From NCBI GenBank assembly GCA_019338205.1, contig GCA_019338205.1_4761.1: a DNA stretch of 64,000 nt, one strand, 5' to 3'. Within the stretch, counting starts at the first letter, position 1. Each line of letters begins with the position of its first letter. The notes below the pieces were generated by a model. The model was not told where the DNA came from. It saw only the letters and a list, made by a program, of their open reading frames with translations, and ran no database searches. A program made the translations under genes and the position numbers. This DNA is from a phage. Positions 28,642 to 37,240 of the stretch are shown here, piece by piece.

Positions 28642-28875
28642 TGTTAGTCACCGTGGGATGCATACCATAAGTAAAAGAATACTAGCATTAACACAACTAT
28701 TTGGCTTCCTCATACTTTCGCGTGTTCAATTACTGCCGAATCGGAAGACCCGTCTAAGACGAGGAAGGGTTATCATTGGAAAGGGATGGTGAATTGGTTA
28801 CTATGTTTAACTAGTTTAGCAAAGGTCGATTCAAACACTACTATACAAATGGACGTGAATAAAATATAATCAAAA

Positions 28876-28898
28876 GCCATCCGAAAGGGTGGCTTTTT
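28876..28898 (+). terminator. intrinsic terminator
   Basis: gccatcc-gaaa-gggtggc hairpin plus TTTTT. Confidence 0.65.
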
Positions 28899-28910
28899 CG
28901 TTTTTATGTG

Positions 28911-28939
28911 TTGACAACCGGAATAGGGTATAGCATAAT
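28911..28939 (+). promoter_or_regulatory. early promoter cassette TTGACA-N17-CATAAT
   Basis: TTGACA 28911-28916, CATAAT 28934-28939, conserved leader. Confidence 0.6.
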
Positions 28940-28968: not shown

Positions 28969-29178
28969 ATGATTAATCCAGTAGCCGCAGCACTTGCTTC
29001 CGAAGAAACTTTGAAGTATATGGTAGAACATGCAGCAAAGAAAGGAGAAATTGTTACTGCCGATGAGATCGTAGAAACCATGCTCCGCGATCCGAATGGT
29101 AACACTGCAAAGTTTTTCGGTGATCATCTTAAACTGGCTTACAAAACAATTATGGAGACCGTGAAAAATGCAAAATGA
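28969..29178 (+). CDS. hypothetical early protein (69 aa)
   Basis: ORF track; cassette leader. Confidence 0.45.
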   Translation: MINPVAAALASEETLKYMVEHAAKKGEIVTADEIVETMLRDPNGNTAKFFGDHLKLAYKTIMETVKNAK

Positions 29179-29506
29179 TGTGATTGAAGTTATTATGAAT
29201 CAATACCGAAACCGGATTTGGTCTGGACGTATCAAAGAAGAAAAGGCAAAACGGATCATCGAAAAATATGCTGAAAAGACTAAGCAAGCGCCAACGGCTA
29301 ACAGAGTTATGATTCTTAAATGTCTGGTGCTTTCCGGTGACGATATGCCTATTGATGCAGAGACAGCCACCGATTTTCATAAGACCTATCGCCAGTGTGA
29401 TGTAATTTTTACTTCTGGCTTCGGTAGTTATGACTCTATTATGTGGAATTTAATGCACCTTGACGCAACGATCTGGGATGTACTTTCGGAGGAGGGTTAC
29501 AAATGA
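29168..29506 (+). CDS. hypothetical protein (112 aa)
   Basis: ORF track. Confidence 0.4.
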   Translation: MQNDVIEVIMNQYRNRIWSGRIKEEKAKRIIEKYAEKTKQAPTANRVMILKCLVLSGDDMPIDAETATDFHKTYRQCDVIFTSGFGSYDSIMWNLMHLDATIWDVLSEEGYK

Positions 29507-30152: not shown

Positions 30153-30181
30153 TTGACAGCGATCCGGTGTCATTGCATAAT
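30153..30181 (+). promoter_or_regulatory. early promoter cassette TTGACA-N17-CATAAT
   Basis: TTGACA 30153-30158, CATAAT 30176-30181, conserved leader. Confidence 0.6.
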
Positions 30182-30222: not shown

Positions 30223-30444
30223 ATGGCAACTGTTAAAATTATCAAATCTTCCGCTGGTTTCGGTTTCATGCGTGGAGCTAAGTACCCGATGATTATTGAA
30301 AACGTTGCCATCGAAGATGGTATGGCTAAAGTGACCAGCCGTCAATTGTTCGAAGCTGGTGTTAAAACTGCTGAATCATGGGCGCTTCGTTACCCAAACA
30401 AAACTTGGTCTTTCTTCCTGAATGGAGAAGCAGAGGTCATCTAA
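30223..30444 (+). CDS. small protein, KIEIID-like paralog family
   Basis: VKIIKSSAGFGFMRGAKYPMIIE resembles ORFs at 32793, 33009, 33266. Confidence 0.45.
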   Translation: MATVKIIKSSAGFGFMRGAKYPMIIENVAIEDGMAKVTSRQLFEAGVKTAESWALRYPNKTWSFFLNGEAEVI

Positions 30445-30462
30445 GTAATATTATTAATCAAT

Positions 30463-30485
30463 GCCCCTTAAATGGGGCTTTTCTT
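30463..30485 (+). terminator. intrinsic terminator
   Basis: gcccc-ttaaat-ggggc hairpin plus TTTTCTT. Confidence 0.6.
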
Positions 30486-30498
30486 GTGAGGAAACTTT

Positions 30499-31278
30499 AT
30501 GGCAATATCTTCTGGATGGGTAGGATCATCTGCTGTGTCCGAGACTGGTCAACGGTGGATGAGCGCCGCAATGCAAGCTGTTCGCTTAGGTCGTCCGGCG
30601 TATATGTCGGCAATGGTCGGACGCTCTAAAGAGATTCATTATAGCATTGGCGCTAGTAATAGTTACAATAAAGATACGCTTATTAACTGGATGAAAGCAC
30701 AGTGATCTACTCCGGTAGTAATTACTATCACTGGTAATATTGTTTCCCAATCTACTGGCGTTCCTTGTCTTGACTTCCCTAGCTCGTTAACAAATGAATA
30801 TGTAACATTGATCATTAACTCCGGTGTTCATGTTTGGGGGCGTGGTGGTAATGGTGGCAATAACTCCGCTGGTGGTGCTGGTGGTAATGCAATAAATAAC
30901 GGAATTGGAACTAGATTACGTATTAACAACAATGGTGTTATCGCAGGCGGCGGTGGCGGTGGAGGTGGTGGGTATTATTCTCCTACGAAACCAATGAAAT
31001 TAACTTTTGGTGGTGGCGGCGGTCGTCCGTTTGGTGCTGCTGGTGGATCTGCCAACATGCAATCAGGCGCAACTGCTGGTACTATTTCCGCGCCAGGTAA
31101 AGGGTCTGTCAACGGTGTATATAATGGCGGTAACGGTGGTGATGCTGGCGGTGCTGGTGGTAAATGTAATATCCGTGGACAGGGATCGGAATATAATGGC
31201 GGTGCGGCTGGTAAGGCTGTTACTGGCAATGCCCCTCGCTGGGATAAAGTAGGCACGATCTACGGTGCTCGCGTGTAA
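30499..31278 (+). pseudogene. gp38-like glycine-rich tail fibre adhesin gene interrupted by in-frame TGA (pseudogene or readthrough)
   Basis: single 780-nt frame; stop TGA at 30703-30705; N-part GWVGSSAVSETGQRWM and Gly-rich C-part (GRGGNGG, GGGGGGGGG, FGGGGGRPFG) resemble T2-type gp38; downstream part has no ATG or SD. Confidence 0.5.
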
Positions 31279-31284
31279 TTTTAT

Positions 31285-31317
31285 GGGCTATCCTTCGGGA
31301 TAGCCTTTTTGTTTTTT
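31285..31317 (+). terminator. intrinsic terminator
   Basis: ggctatcc-ttcg-ggatagcc hairpin plus T-run. Confidence 0.75.
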
Positions 31318-31322
31318 GGGTG

Positions 31323-31350
31323 TTGACAATGAAAATCATAGTGCTATAAT
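31323..31350 (+). promoter_or_regulatory. early promoter cassette TTGACA-N16-TATAAT
   Basis: TTGACA 31323-31328, TATAAT 31345-31350. Confidence 0.6.
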
Positions 31351-31379: not shown

Positions 31380-31670
31380 ATGACCGCTGAACAATTAATC
31401 AAACATATCCGCAACATTATTTGGGATCTGTCTGGTGATAAAGAGGAACAGGCTGAACGCATTTTAGCTAAACTCTATGAGCGCCGTGACCGTGGAGTAT
31501 CCGTAAAGAAAGTAGAAACTTTCAAAGAGTTATCTTTCATCGAAGCTAAAAAGGATGGATTAATTTATCAGTTGACAGATGGTTACTGGTGCTATGATAA
31601 TACTCGCTATGACACCGCGACTGATGCATTAAAAGCATGTAATGACCATCTTCGCAAAACTACCATTTGA
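31380..31670 (+). CDS. hypothetical early protein (96 aa)
   Basis: ORF track; cassette leader. Confidence 0.45.
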   Translation: MTAEQLIKHIRNIIWDLSGDKEEQAERILAKLYERRDRGVSVKKVETFKELSFIEAKKDGLIYQLTDGYWCYDNTRYDTATDALKACNDHLRKTTI

Positions 31671-31680
31671 GGATTATAAT

Positions 31681-31878
31681 ATGAGGGTTAAAACATTGGC
31701 TGATATGGATGAGATCGAGACTCAAGTACATGCGGCGCTAGTCGGTTATGAGTTCGGGCGATTCCTTAATAAGTTCCATGATTATAAATGCTTAAATTGT
31801 GGTGCTCATAACGTAATTGGTGCTTGCTGTATTAATCCTGTTATAGTACCATATAAAAGAAATGAAACAGAAGAGTGA
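31681..31878 (+). CDS. small Cys-containing protein
   Basis: ATG 31681 with SD GAGGAT; CLNCGAHNVIGACC. Confidence 0.4.
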   Translation: MRVKTLADMDEIETQVHAALVGYEFGRFLNKFHDYKCLNCGAHNVIGACCINPVIVPYKRNETEE

Positions 31879-31888
31879 GGAACATAGA

Positions 31889-32107
31889 ATGAAGACCAAC
31901 GAATCAGTAATACCGCCAGCTTTCGGTCGCATTCCTATAGTTATCACAAAGTCAAATATGTCTTTCGTTGAGGTTGGCGAGCGTACACACATAACAACGA
32001 TGCACGGAAAACAGTATATTTGGTCATCTTTCTGTAAATCGTATGAGCTTTTAAGCTGGGCGATTGATGTATGGAAAATTGAATATGAAGTAATTACAGA
32101 AGAGTGA
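31889..32107 (+). CDS. small protein, PAFG-ITKSN paralog family
   Basis: PAFGRIPIVITKSNMSFVEVGERTHITTM resembles C-terminus of next ORF. Confidence 0.45.
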   Translation: MKTNESVIPPAFGRIPIVITKSNMSFVEVGERTHITTMHGKQYIWSSFCKSYELLSWAIDVWKIEYEVITEE

Positions 32108-32117
32108 GGAATACAAA

Positions 32118-32552
32118 ATGAAAAAGTTGATGGCTACATTTCATGACATGCGAGATCTACCAGGTTTAGCACATATCGATTTTCCTGTTACTATGGAAGT
32201 GTCGGAATATGACGGTTATCATGATATTCTGTTCATTAAAAATACTGAGTTTATCCGCTTAGGCGCTAAACCTGCTGTGCTATACCCAGAAGGAAACCGG
32301 ACAGCGGTCAGAAAAACAAATTCTGTTAAATTGGCATTTAGTTCAGATGTTGACTTGGAACCAGCTTTCGGATATACTCCTGTCGAGATCACAAAATCGA
32401 ATACTTCTTTCGTGAAAGTAGGAGAGAAAACGCATATTTCAACTATGCAAGACGGTACACAATATCTATGGTCCGATTTCTGCCAGCGTTATGAGCGTTT
32501 ATCATGGGCTACCCGCTTATGGTGTGTTGAGTATAAGGAGATCACAAAATGA
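32118..32552 (+). CDS. protein with C-terminal PAFG-ITKSN domain
   Basis: C-terminal PAFGYTPVEITKSNTSFVKVGEKTHISTM...LSWA paralogous to previous ORF. Confidence 0.45.
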   Translation: MKKLMATFHDMRDLPGLAHIDFPVTMEVSEYDGYHDILFIKNTEFIRLGAKPAVLYPEGNRTAVRKTNSVKLAFSSDVDLEPAFGYTPVEITKSNTSFVKVGEKTHISTMQDGTQYLWSDFCQRYERLSWATRLWCVEYKEITK

Positions 32553-32803
32553 TCACCGGATATATTCCATATTCAACAACAAAACATATTGTCGGATTCG
32601 AAGACATAGAAAAGTCTTGCTTTCCTCTCAAGGTTGAAGTAGACTTTATTACAGCGAACGGGTGGGCTTATGTTACCGTAGAAGAAATGAAGCGCGTAGG
32701 GTGGGAAAACTGCATACACCTACCGCATCTTATCCTAGATGTTCGCGCTGGTGAAATTGATATTGCTGGAAAGATCTATGGAGACAATGTAAATGAAAAT
32801 TGA
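32549..32803 (+). CDS. hypothetical protein (84 aa)
   Basis: ORF track; ATGA overlap. Confidence 0.4.
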   Translation: MITGYIPYSTTKHIVGFEDIEKSCFPLKVEVDFITANGWAYVTVEEMKRVGWENCIHLPHLILDVRAGEIDIAGKIYGDNVNEN

Positions 32804-32990
32804 AATTATTGATGATGGTGGATTTTCTTTCATGAATGGCGTTAAACTTCCTATCATCGTGGAAGGTCGTCGTTATGGGCTTGATTATCTTGTAGAAACG
32901 CAGGAACTACAAAAAGCTGGCGTGCCAATTAAAGGTTATTTTCCTGAGTATGAATGGTGTTTTCGTGCAAATGAAGCCTGGGCGGTATAA
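32793..32990 (+). CDS. small protein, KIEIID paralog family
   Basis: MKIEIIDDGGFSFMNGVKLPIIVEG...YEWCF. Confidence 0.45.
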   Translation: MKIEIIDDGGFSFMNGVKLPIIVEGRRYGLDYLVETQELQKAGVPIKGYFPEYEWCFRANEAWAV

Positions 32991-33008
32991 CTAATTGAGG
33001 ATTATATT

Positions 33009-33266
33009 ATGAAGATTGAAATTATTGACCGTGCTGGGTATACTTTCATGGAAAAAGTTAAACTTCCTATCATTGTTGAAGGTCGACCCTTATGTCAAGG
33101 ATTCATGATAAAGACCAGAGAACTACGAAATGCGGGTGTTCCTGTTGAATCATGTTTCGGTGATGATTATGAATGGTGTTTCAGTGGTTTTCGTGCACAT
33201 AAAGTAAAAGAAGCACGAAAAGCGTCATGGTTTGCTCGCTTTAATAACTGGTTGAGGAATCTGTGA
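33009..33266 (+). CDS. small protein, KIEIID paralog family
   Basis: MKIEIIDRAGYTFMEKVKLPIIVEG...YEWCF. Confidence 0.45.
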   Translation: MKIEIIDRAGYTFMEKVKLPIIVEGRPLCQGFMIKTRELRNAGVPVESCFGDDYEWCFSGFRAHKVKEARKASWFARFNNWLRNL

Positions 33267-33604
33267 TGTGTGAAATGAAAAAGTATATGATTCTAAGTGA
33301 TTCAGGATACACCTTCTTACAAGGTATTGATAGTGACTCGCGTCCTATTGTATATGGAAAAGAACATCCGACCATTCTTGGGATCATTCTTGTTACGACA
33401 AGATCACTTCGTCGAGTGTCGGAAAGCCCATACCTACAAAACGTAAAGCAAGACCGAGAATGGGCTTTCGAGTTAGGTAAAGATCTTGTTGAGTGGGTAA
33501 ACTGTGAAGACAAGAACCAACGAAATCATGAAAGGAAGATTGCACGAAATGTACATAGAAAAAAACTTGATGAAATCAAAAACAGGATTCTACAATCAAT
33601 GTAA
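33266..33604 (+). CDS. protein with KIEIID-like N-domain and basic C-terminus
   Basis: YMILSDSGYTFLQGIDSDSRPIVYG; ATG 33266 with SD GAGGAA. Confidence 0.4.
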   Translation: MCEMKKYMILSDSGYTFLQGIDSDSRPIVYGKEHPTILGIILVTTRSLRRVSESPYLQNVKQDREWAFELGKDLVEWVNCEDKNQRNHERKIARNVHRKKLDEIKNRILQSM

Positions 33605-33824
33605 TAGGGTATTCATCGTCCTTCTGGATTCAGAAAACTATCCAGAACTCTCTAAAACGCGTTTTCCGTGCGTTGTTGAAGCACACAAGGCATATGCACC
33701 AGATAAACAGTTTATCGTTATGGCGAGCGAAATAGAGAGGTTAGGGGCGATCCCTAAACATGATGAATATGTGTTTCGTAAGGCGTTCTCTGTGCCTCAT
33801 TTTGGTGTAGAGTTAATTCACTAA
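33570..33824 (+). CDS. hypothetical protein (start uncertain)
   Basis: ORF track frame; overlaps previous gene; no clear SD. Confidence 0.3.
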   Translation: MKSKTGFYNQCNRVFIVLLDSENYPELSKTRFPCVVEAHKAYAPDKQFIVMASEIERLGAIPKHDEYVFRKAFSVPHFGVELIH

Positions 33825-33839
33825 AATCATAAAAAGTTG

Positions 33840-33868
33840 TTGACAGGGGATCGCGTATCCCCTATACT
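33840..33868 (+). promoter_or_regulatory. early promoter cassette with spacer hairpin (TTGACA-gggga.tcccc-TATACT)
   Basis: TTGACA 33840-33845; palindrome ggggatcgcgtatcccc fills the 17-nt spacer; TATACT 33863-33868. Confidence 0.55.
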
Positions 33869-35706: not shown

Positions 35707-36138
35707 ATGGTTTATCCAACTCCTAGTAAGATTTACATTGACGATACTCATTTTCTTGTTGAAATTATGGGTATCAAGTTTAGCGGTAATGTTAAAATTG
35801 TAGAATGGGAATTACACGGTCAACCTGTAACCGATTATGACCATTATATCCCTTTCGGTGGCGATGATAACTTTGTTTCATTTGACCATGAAGGTTACAT
35901 GAACTTTGAGCAAGACGATGTACCTTTGTATCTGGCAATGATGGATATTCCTATTAAAACAGAATATACAGAGGGCGATTGCGATTGTTGCGGATACTAC
36001 AGCGTAACAGATATTAAGCTGCCATCCGGTAAAGAACTTTACAAAGAGGATCATTTCGGAAACTGCAATTTTCCTTGCGGCTGGCAAGAATTTTTCGAAC
36101 TTGTAGAGATTGAGCGAACTTATTTGAGGAAGGGATAA
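35707..36138 (+). CDS. hypothetical Cys-rich protein (143 aa)
   Basis: ORF track; SD GAGGAT. Confidence 0.45.
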   Translation: MVYPTPSKIYIDDTHFLVEIMGIKFSGNVKIVEWELHGQPVTDYDHYIPFGGDDNFVSFDHEGYMNFEQDDVPLYLAMMDIPIKTEYTEGDCDCCGYYSVTDIKLPSGKELYKEDHFGNCNFPCGWQEFFELVEIERTYLRKG

Positions 36139-36950
36139 TGAAGAAAGCATTAGGTTTAATTCCCTATACTGGCAATAAGGAAAAGCTATTGCCAGGTGTT
36201 AGTAAGTATTTCCCTAAGCACTATAACCGCTTTGTTGATGCCTTTTGTGGCGGCTTGAGCGTGTCTCTGTACGTCGAAGGTGATGTGCTAGCTAATGACT
36301 ATGACCATCGTTTAATTGACGCTTACAAGGCCATTGATGCGTGTCCTGATCCGGTTTCTACAATCAAGCGGATTATTTCCGAGAATGGTTTGTCTCGTGA
36401 TGATAAAGATGCTTACATGGCATTCCGTAAGAAGTATAACGAGAATCCAGATCCGCTATCGCTGTTTGTGTTGATTCAGCATAGTTTTAGCAACATTAAC
36501 CGCCATAATCGCAAAGGTGAATTTAATGCTAACTTTGGTCGCCGGACTTTTAACGAAAACGCGGTAGAGCGTGTCCTGAATTTTAAAGAAGAAAACAAAG
36601 ATGGTCGAATCAATTTTACTTCTGGACGATATGACGAGATCGAGATCTTGCCAGGTGATTTCGTTTATTTGGACCCGCCGTACCTTATCACTTCTGCTGA
36701 ATATAATAAGTTCTGGAGTGACGAGGAAGAGATTAAATTCTATCGGTGGGTAGAATCTATTATGGCGCGTGGTTTTCAGTTTGGTATCAGTAATGTCACG
36801 CATCATAAGGGAAATGTAAATGATCATCTTCTTGACTTTATCAAGCGGAATGATTTAAACTGCGTCCTGTTGAATAAGACCTATTGCCTAGACCGTTCAG
36901 GCGGCAAGTCTTCTGATACGCAAGAAGTTTATGTAACTAACGTAGATTGA
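36138..36950 (+). CDS. dam: DNA adenine methyltransferase (Dam, N6-adenine)
   Basis: FCGGLSV SAM-binding motif and DPPY catalytic motif. Confidence 0.9.
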   Translation: MKKALGLIPYTGNKEKLLPGVSKYFPKHYNRFVDAFCGGLSVSLYVEGDVLANDYDHRLIDAYKAIDACPDPVSTIKRIISENGLSRDDKDAYMAFRKKYNENPDPLSLFVLIQHSFSNINRHNRKGEFNANFGRRTFNENAVERVLNFKEENKDGRINFTSGRYDEIEILPGDFVYLDPPYLITSAEYNKFWSDEEEIKFYRWVESIMARGFQFGISNVTHHKGNVNDHLLDFIKRNDLNCVLLNKTYCLDRSGGKSSDTQEVYVTNVD

Positions 36951-36958
36951 GGTATAAT

Positions 36959-37240
36959 ATGGTAGAAATTTTTGGTTTTGAAGGTTACAACTGTAAGTAT
37001 TGCCAGAATGCAAAGCGCCTTTGTGAATCGCGTAAGATCCCTTACATCTACATTCCGGTTAATGATGGTGTGGACGAAAACGGTCGCCCTGTAAAGATTG
37101 ATTCTATCATTGCCGATATTCAGGATCGCGCAGGGGTAGAAGTTATTGCCACCATGCCGCAGATTTTCTATGATGGTGATTATATTGGTGGCTTTGATGA
37201 GTTCCGATCCTTTGTAGTCAAAAACAAGATTCATGGTTAA
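36959..37240 (+). CDS. nrdC: glutaredoxin-like protein NrdC
   Basis: CKYC active site; MPQIFYDGDYIGGFDEF glutaredoxin motif. Confidence 0.8.
   Translation: MVEIFGFEGYNCKYCQNAKRLCESRKIPYIYIPVNDGVDENGRPVKIDSIIADIQDRAGVEVIATMPQIFYDGDYIGGFDEFRSFVVKNKIHG

Follow-up and report, generated by a model that had tools for sequence, protein, structure and literature searches.

A tandem array of two small phage domains in the hyperplastic region of a Krischvirus genome: family structure, recombination and putative early function

The hyperplastic regions of T4-type phages are a recurrent source of host-takeover and counter-defence genes, and most of their open reading frames (ORFs) are unannotated. In a 64,000-nucleotide stretch of phage DNA (contig GCA_019338205.1_4761.1 of GenBank assembly GCA_019338205.1, hereafter the window), a run of small genes at positions 31889 to 33604 raises the question of whether such genes are copies of one another, how the set has been built and kept, and what its products could do for the phage. 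A sequence-only reading of the stretch had proposed two recurring families of small early proteins. The 6 kb around the array are 94–98% identical to the Krischvirus genomes vB_EcoM_011D4, E26, GEC-3S, RB49 and phi1, an identity that places the source phage in Krischvirus, among the RB49-like T4-type phages. The array sits among small plus-strand ORFs with rI/tk on one side and dam/nrdC on the other, and the small ORFs in between are called 'hypothetical' in all records examined. We describe the block as early accessory genes of the Krischvirus hyperplastic region, built from two phage-specific domains outside Pfam. The anatomical and evolutionary part of this description is held with high confidence, whereas the description as a whole, which also reads the domains as independent early binding modules, seems to us evenly poised between right and wrong. 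Coordinates of array genes, their promoters, terminators and repeats refer to the plus strand, and genes are named by their first position.

The larger family (family 2) is defined by a domain of about 65 amino acids, domain A, present in seven copies, six in the consecutive genes from 32118 to 33824 and one apart, as the promoter-to-terminator cassette of 30223. Its central pair, 32793 and 33009, aligned in BLASTP with 53% identity over 66 amino acids (E = 2.9e-23), and their ortholog profiles matched in hhalign with 99.8% probability, bearing out the similarity already noticed from the letters, although the motif proposed for the whole family, MKIEIID..G(Y/F)(T/S)FM..VKLPIIVEG, is complete in these two proteins only. 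ORF 30223, which had been taken for the more distant relative, is a true member, aligning with 33009 or 32793 at E ~8e-6 and matching phrog_7345 at E = 3e-34 alongside 32793 (1e-35) and 33009 (1e-38). The more distant member is instead 33266, with E = 1.2e-4 against 33009, a weak match to phrog_7345 (0.0045) and a PHROG family of its own, phrog_16316. All the members listed by the sequence-only reading are real, but the family had been undercounted, as ORF 33570–33824, the N-terminal half of 32118 and ORF 32549–32803 had been missed; with these three further members the array extends to 33824, beyond 33604.

Word-indexed homolog searches returned Krischvirus-like clusters only, and relatives outside the genus were reached by an exhaustive HMMER search with the family-2 profile against 1.84 billion representative proteins. 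Only 21 proteins scored at E <= 1e-3 in this search, and four of them carry two domain-A copies per chain. The non-Krischvirus hits, split into single domains, gave an external-only hidden Markov model (HMM), which was run on the 621 six-frame ORFs of at least 40 amino acids in the window. It retrieved 33009 (E = 1.2e-18), 32793 (1.3e-17), 30223 (1.9e-9), 33570 (8.2e-9), 33266 (2.4e-7), the N-terminal half of 32118 (3.3e-5) and 32549 (8.3e-5), and the next best ORF reached only 0.57. By hhalign, probabilities were 84–99.5% for the seven domain-A ortholog groups versus at most 1.3% for 17 neighbouring control groups. Furthermore, in a comparison of eleven related loci, variant orthologs connected 33266 with family 2 at E = 3e-6 and 33570 at E = 2.6e-5.

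The members differ in what is attached to the domain. ORF 32793 (32793–32990, 65 amino acids) is the bare domain, and 33009 (33009–33266, 85 amino acids) adds a basic C-terminal helix with an isoelectric point (pI) of 11.7. ORF 33266 (33266–33604, 112 amino acids) carries a 37-residue basic helical tail; in addition to the HMM, hhalign (96.4%) and the match of variant 33009 orthologs noted above assign it to the family. The last gene of the operon, 33570 (33570–33824, 84 amino acids; hhalign 97.6%, E = 3.5e-12), resembles the second repeat of P0024, a double-domain protein of another phage. The diverged 32549 (32549–32803, 84 amino acids) was assigned by the HMM and by hhalign (83.6%, E = 8e-6), and 30223 (30223–30444, 73 amino acids), apart from the main array, by phrog_7345, the external-only HMM and hhalign (97.1%). 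The window proteins belong to PHROG clusters at E = 1e-34 to 1e-102, domain A being spread over phrogs 7345, 13367, 15322, 20482, 9595, 5009, 16316, 17411 and 15979, and the second domain over 10407 and 16117; the roughly ten PHROGs that hold members are all labelled 'unknown function'. Whereas PHROGs split the domain-A set into separate families, the profile and structure evidence given here merges them into one superfamily, for which the putative shared fold comes from a confident model of 33009 and the BFVD models that agree with it.

The smaller family (family 1) is defined by domain B, likewise of about 65 amino acids and mostly beta, which occurs twice, alone in 31889 and fused behind domain A in 32118. 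The stand-alone copy (31889–32107, 72 amino acids) lies in an ORF that could also open at 31862, but 31889 is the correct start, being preceded by the ribosome-binding site GAGTGAGGAA, and the same 72-residue form is called in a related contig (L010). It aligned with the C-terminus of 32118 at 60% identity over 65 amino acids (BLASTP E = 2.6e-28), the ortholog profiles of the two matched in hhalign with 99.8% probability (E = 1.6e-27), and both proteins hit phrog_10407 and phrog_16117 (31889 at E = 1.7e-18 and 8.6e-24, 32118 at 1.9e-26 and 9.8e-102). The core earlier proposed for this family, PAFG..P..ITKSN.SFV.VGE.THI.TM, fits both. The two-domain protein (32118–32552, 144 amino acids) has a diverged domain A at residues 14–60 and domain B at residues 80–144, and the family-2 nature of its N-terminal half was recovered by the HMM (E = 3.3e-5) as well as by hhalign (96.3%, E = 1.7e-9). 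By these matches, phrog_16117 represents domain A fused to domain B. Both families that had been named are thus real, but their joining in one protein had been overlooked. The candidate idea that the two domains are related to each other was rejected, with hhalign probabilities of 0.1–0.8%.

AlphaFold2, run on 33009 with a 28-sequence alignment, gave a predicted local distance difference test (pLDDT) score of 88 overall and of about 95–98 over residues 1–66. The elements follow in the order strand, short helix, beta-hairpin, helix, two strands and a lower-confidence C-terminal helix; the fold predicted for domain A is a small beta-barrel with five strands and two short helices. In BFVD, all matches of the model were uncharacterised phage proteins (RB49, Sf20, VpV262, CS01, ZCKP1, Merlin, SRT8 and NBD2), with a template-modelling (TM) score of 0.98 for the 65-residue RB49 protein and of 0.6–0.8 for distant phage members. 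Foldseek against the PDB returned nothing significant for the 33009 model (best E = 0.46, probability at most 0.66). The weak matches were all SH3, Tudor, chromo or Sm-like small barrels, the sole fold kinds retrieved, which domain A resembles in size, in its five strands and in barrel-like arrangement. It nevertheless differs from them, with TM scores of 0.3–0.56, sequence identity of 4–18% and the E-value just given, and its helix lies between strands 3 and 4, unlike the helix position in SH3 or Sm domains. The conserved positions P20, W56 and F58 and a G-G-Y turn look structural. Searches of all members against Pfam, NCBIfam, PADLOC and PDB sequences gave no significant match, the best sub-threshold ones being DUF4453 at 0.11 and birA_repr_reg at 0.0096 (15.8 bits versus a cut-off of 70).

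Domain A is not confined to the genus. In a T4-like metagenomic contig (L012, 485–1569), six copies lie in four adjacent genes upstream of dam/nrdC, with two adjacent double-domain fusions (142 and 145 amino acids) flanked by single-domain genes, and double-domain family-2 proteins were also found in P0024 and P0032. Proteus phage RS51pmB, Moonvirus Merlin, where the copy lies between genes 32 and frd, and the Drexlerviridae phage IME347 carry single or double copies within blocks of small genes called hypothetical. Lambdoid prophages of Morganella morganii (L017 and L018, 8001–8234) carry one copy in the early-left operon, with RecT/YqaJ genes on one side and NinX, an MT-A70 methylase and integrase on the other, and domain A therefore reaches beyond virulent phages alone. 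Domain B, at about 49% identity, is a lone small gene among structural genes in Salmonella phage SP069 (Nonanavirus) and the P2-like Aeromonas phage Avpd1. A related-locus search with P0035 in representative genomes found nothing. Both domains were shown to be restricted to phages and prophages, and from this scattered distribution they are mobile accessory modules of phages of Enterobacterales and neighbours.

The regulatory setting of the array suggests that its genes are transcribed early. Consensus sigma-70 promoters were found at 28911, 30153, 31323, 33840 and 34517 and stem-loop terminators at 28872, 30463 and 31285, and the annotation of GEC-3S has early promoters and terminators at equivalent places. 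The single-gene 30223 cassette opens with an early sigma-70-type promoter at 30153–30181 (TTGACA-17-CATAAT, 11/12 matches) and closes with the stem-loop at 30463–30478, both with annotated counterparts in GEC-3S. The operon 31380–33824 is driven by a unit at 31285–31350, also annotated in GEC-3S, in which a stem-loop terminator (31285–31306) is followed by a promoter (31323–31350) with a perfect TTGACA-16-TATAAT (12/12) and an extended -10 TG. This arrangement has the features by which PeSL cassettes are recognized, namely a strong sigma-70-like early promoter with a stem-loop terminator, intergenic and in a hyperplastic region. A second terminator–promoter pair lies at 28872–28939, and the next early promoter, found by the promoter scan and annotated in GEC-3S, marks the end of the transcription unit of the array at 33840–33868. 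The array promoters match the published descriptions of RB49 early promoters (PMC1524935) and of the PeSL cassettes of RB49 and phi1 (PMC2839356). The label 'early', which the sequence-only reading had already given and which is supported for genes behind the promoters at 30153 and 31323, comes from promoter sequence together with the published work on the RB49 group (PMC1524935).

How old are the copies, and what keeps them? Protein identity between paralogs is 27–60%, and since synonymous divergence (dS) between them is above 1.3 or saturated, the duplications are old. Pairwise Nei–Gojobori estimates of the ratio of nonsynonymous to synonymous divergence (dN/dS, omega), made gene by gene and for the core, loops and tail of 33009, gave omega of 0.0–0.3 for most genes in the block, and most copies are under purifying selection. 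The protein of 32793 is identical at dS = 0.10 and 98–100% conserved in the phages that carry the gene. At the 11 loci examined every reading frame is intact except that of a 31889 copy with a truncated C-terminus in L005, and each array gene is preceded by a ribosome-binding site. ORF 33009 stands out, with 58–67% protein identity to its orthologs in several phages versus 88–100% for its neighbours. Its domain part is hypervariable between phages (58–100% identity) and the gene, set against its orthologs in L001–L010, is a mosaic, with dS of 0.5–2 between allele groups over codons 1–66 and of about 0.1 over codons 67–85 and the flanking genes, which implies putative recombination break-points at both ends of the domain. 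Omega in 33009 is below 1 in the core and the predicted loops and near 1 in the tail, there on very few changes; this pattern fits an exchange of old domain-sized alleles between phages better than recent positive selection.

Of about 59 Krischvirus records, 10 carry 31889 and 23 carry 32793, and all four combinations of presence and absence were seen. The junctions of these polymorphisms could be read to the base. ORF 31889 is flanked by two copies of a 29-bp direct repeat (31867–31895 and 32096–32124, 25/29 identical), the left one comprising the final T-E-E-stop codons of the gene upstream, the GAGTGAGGAA ribosome-binding site and ATGAA, and RB49-type phages show an exact deletion between the copies that leaves a single repeat and no 31889. 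Phage G5211 has only a 72-residue domain-B chimera, with the crossover at the 11-bp CCAGCTTTCGG (32361–32371, also 31916–31926), which encodes P-A-F-G; the remainder of 31889 has been removed together with the N-terminal domain of 32118. In phages without 32793, 32549 is joined to a single family-2 gene via the shared 5' end ATGAAAATTGAAATTATT. These tandem repeats, each bounded by short homologies, show that units are still being added to and lost from the array by recombination between short direct repeats at gene junctions, at paralog 5' ends and in internal motifs. T4 offers well-documented cases of recombination between short homologous stretches (PMC9391042).

Whole cassettes also come and go. 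PeSL end-points hold for the gene-38 cassette upstream of the array and for a replacement of the 30223 cassette, but not for 31889 and 32793, whose junctions lie inside the operon. In a metagenomic Krischvirus contig (L006, 2178–2640) the 30223 cassette is replaced by a 32-residue ORF and a gene for a 111-residue protein, a paralog of ORF 29168–29506 (Pfam DUF7238) with 51% identity to it. ORF 31380 shows faint similarity to the N-terminal part of 29168 (hhalign E = 5.8e-4), and with the 29168-related genes the block would contain a third family of paralogs.

Nolan et al. 2006 (PMC1524935) and Arbiol et al. 2010 (PMC2839356) have described clusters of ORFans in the hyperplastic regions of T4-type phages and their shuffling via PeSL cassettes. 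The array is a case of this known phenomenon: it comes from the same phage group (RB49, phi1), consists of small early genes between conserved blocks, has promoter–terminator units at 31285–31350 and 30153/30463, and undergoes insertion, deletion and replacement of whole cassettes. It differs in that most changes of copy number occur at short direct repeats within one operon, away from the PeSLs. A term search of the PeSL paper (PMC2839356) found no mention of paralogs, gene duplication or the RB49 ORF07x genes, and the family structure given here would be new as far as our searches reach. By its mechanism of expansion, the array can be set beside the segmental amplification of T4 dmd-tifA against toxIN, in which microhomology recombination generates counter-defence arrays (Srikant et al. 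2022, PMC9391042), and beside the 'genomic accordions' of poxviruses. In the T4 case, as in the array, early accessory genes of a T4-type phage are multiplied in tandem at short homologies and units can be lost. The two cases are unlike in age and in evidence for selection: the tifA repeats are recent, near-identical and under a known pressure, whereas the array copies are ancient, 27–60% identical and individually conserved.

The copies thus arose by old tandem duplications, and purifying selection maintains most of them. What the proteins do is suggested more tentatively. The products may be small, soluble binding modules without enzymatic activity that appear within minutes of the start of infection. 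A given module could act alone on a component of the host, a defence against phages or a rival phage, with paralogs and alleles differing in their target or host-variant specificity, and the basic C-terminal helices of 33009 and 33266 might add a second contact. That the copies are independent binding modules acting early on host, defence or rival-phage targets, with differences between paralogs and alleles reflecting different targets, is a tentative reading that we consider possible and would not call probable. Several points weigh against it. For its functional part, the reading draws solely on where the genes lie, on their small size and on the absence of catalytic motifs. Two published screens that tested phage accessory genes for function contain no member, as far as motif strings compared with the supplementary text could tell. 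Of the seven domain-A assignments, that of 32549 is the weakest (hhalign about 84%). The AlphaFold2 model of 32118, from a nine-sequence alignment, reached a pLDDT of only 47 overall (63–71 in the family-1 domain, which looks mostly beta, and about 30 in the N-terminal half), and Foldseek with this low-confidence model returned only noise. Cooperation between paralogs would fit the double-domain fusions of L012 and 32118 just as well. Finally, pairwise omega exceeded 1 in no gene and in no region of 33009. The proposal that local duplication and divergence betray selection for variant host-interaction specificities therefore holds in its first half, duplication and divergence being real; the selection is plausible only, as the duplications are ancient, dN/dS is below 1, and diversifying selection lacks demonstration when no site or region rises above that value.

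Cooperation could take the form of one hetero-oligomeric assembly with the paralogs as subunits, such as an Sm/LSm-like ring or stack. Adjacent paralogs are fused in L012, P0024 and P0032, and partners joined in one chain often interact, as the Rosetta-stone argument has it; two diverged T4-like lineages keep six or seven copies at the same locus, and the weak Foldseek matches include Sm/LSm chains. Yet copies are freely lost, 32793 being missing from over half of the Krischviruses and 30223 replaced by an unrelated gene in L006, and many phages have a single copy. Moreover, the Sm matches are non-significant (E ~0.7 to 2.5) and no better than SH3/Tudor, and the predicted element order of domain A is without the N-terminal helix that the Sm fold has, so we regard such an assembly as quite unlikely. 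Unlikely as well is that domain A is a nucleic-acid-binding barrel, making the proteins early regulators of RNA or DNA through translation, mRNA stability or transcription. Many of the SH3/Tudor/KOW/Sm-like barrels it weakly resembles bind RNA or DNA, and the C-terminal helices are basic (pI 11.7 in 33009 and 9.9 in 33266), as are 30223, 33009 and 33266 overall (pI 9.2–9.5). Against this, 32793 (pI 4.7) and 32549 (pI 4.8) are acidic, the bare domains are near neutral, the conserved residues named above look structural and unlike a basic binding face, and no nucleic-acid-binding family was matched significantly.

Competition between phages, through superinfection exclusion or protection against the weapons of other phages, would suit genes that are early, accessory and polymorphic among co-circulating Krischviruses, and copies stand in a prophage early region and in moron-like positions of temperate-type phages, where exclusion genes are common. 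The proteins, however, have no membrane or export features, whereas Imm and Sp, known for exclusion in T4, are membrane proteins, and nothing specific favours competition over independent modules with a broader range of targets; we think it quite unlikely as an alternative to action on the host. Hardly any credence can be given to the ORFs being functionless leftovers of duplication that drift neutrally. They are all 'hypothetical' in every record and some are dispensable in nature, but strong purifying selection (omega 0–0.3, with the 32793 protein identical at dS = 0.10), frames intact at the 11 loci save that of 31889 in L005, a ribosome-binding site on each gene, the persistence of paralogs despite saturated dS and a domain fold conserved across unrelated phages all speak against drift. 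Among bolder versions, the seven domain-A paralogs could be a fixed, diverged 'accordion' of decoys or inhibitors, one per defence or host-factor variant, or else a hetero-oligomeric ring like the seven-paralog Sm ring, a pair of options that we put forward as speculation and, taken together, as rather unlikely.

Several observations were made on neighbouring loci. The gp38 tail-fibre adhesin gene (30499–31278) has an in-frame TGA at codon 69 (30703–30705) at which four relatives read GGA (Gly), and over the surrounding 111 bp the closest phage, 011D4, differs by one base; the TGA may stem from a sequencing error, mark a pseudogene or represent an opal mutant, and would affect host range. The gene-38 cassette (30463–31350) lies between terminator and promoter elements inside the early region. 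It is absent at this locus in G5211, G2248, UPWr_E1 and L005, with a remnant in L008 (loci compared: L002, L003, L004, L005 and L008), a polymorphism that looks like PeSL-type insertion or deletion. The late-promoter motif TATAAATA was found nowhere in 28–37 kb of the window. Just upstream of 31889, a small protein (31642/31681–31878), kept in all relatives examined, has the cysteine pattern KCLNCGAHNVIGACC, which suggests a small metal-binding motif. On the far side of the array, an HNH homing-endonuclease gene separates dam from nrdC in GEC-3S (L001, 9197–9952), and in the window dam is followed directly by nrdC (36138–37240).

Our results join roughly ten separate PHROG families into one small-barrel domain, confidently modelled in 33009. 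Two T4-like lineages have it in arrays of six or seven copies at one locus, and it also turns up scattered in the accessory regions of unrelated virulent and temperate phages. Natural alleles with base-resolved junctions reveal how such arrays grow, shrink and fuse, providing a worked example of the evolution of a phage ORFan family. By itself the block offers no new mechanism, and it is a defined candidate for anti-defence or host-takeover screens. If a decoy panel or a ring proved to be true, domain A would represent a new class of phage early effector, whose specificity would be tuned by the gain and loss of copies and by the exchange of domain-sized alleles.

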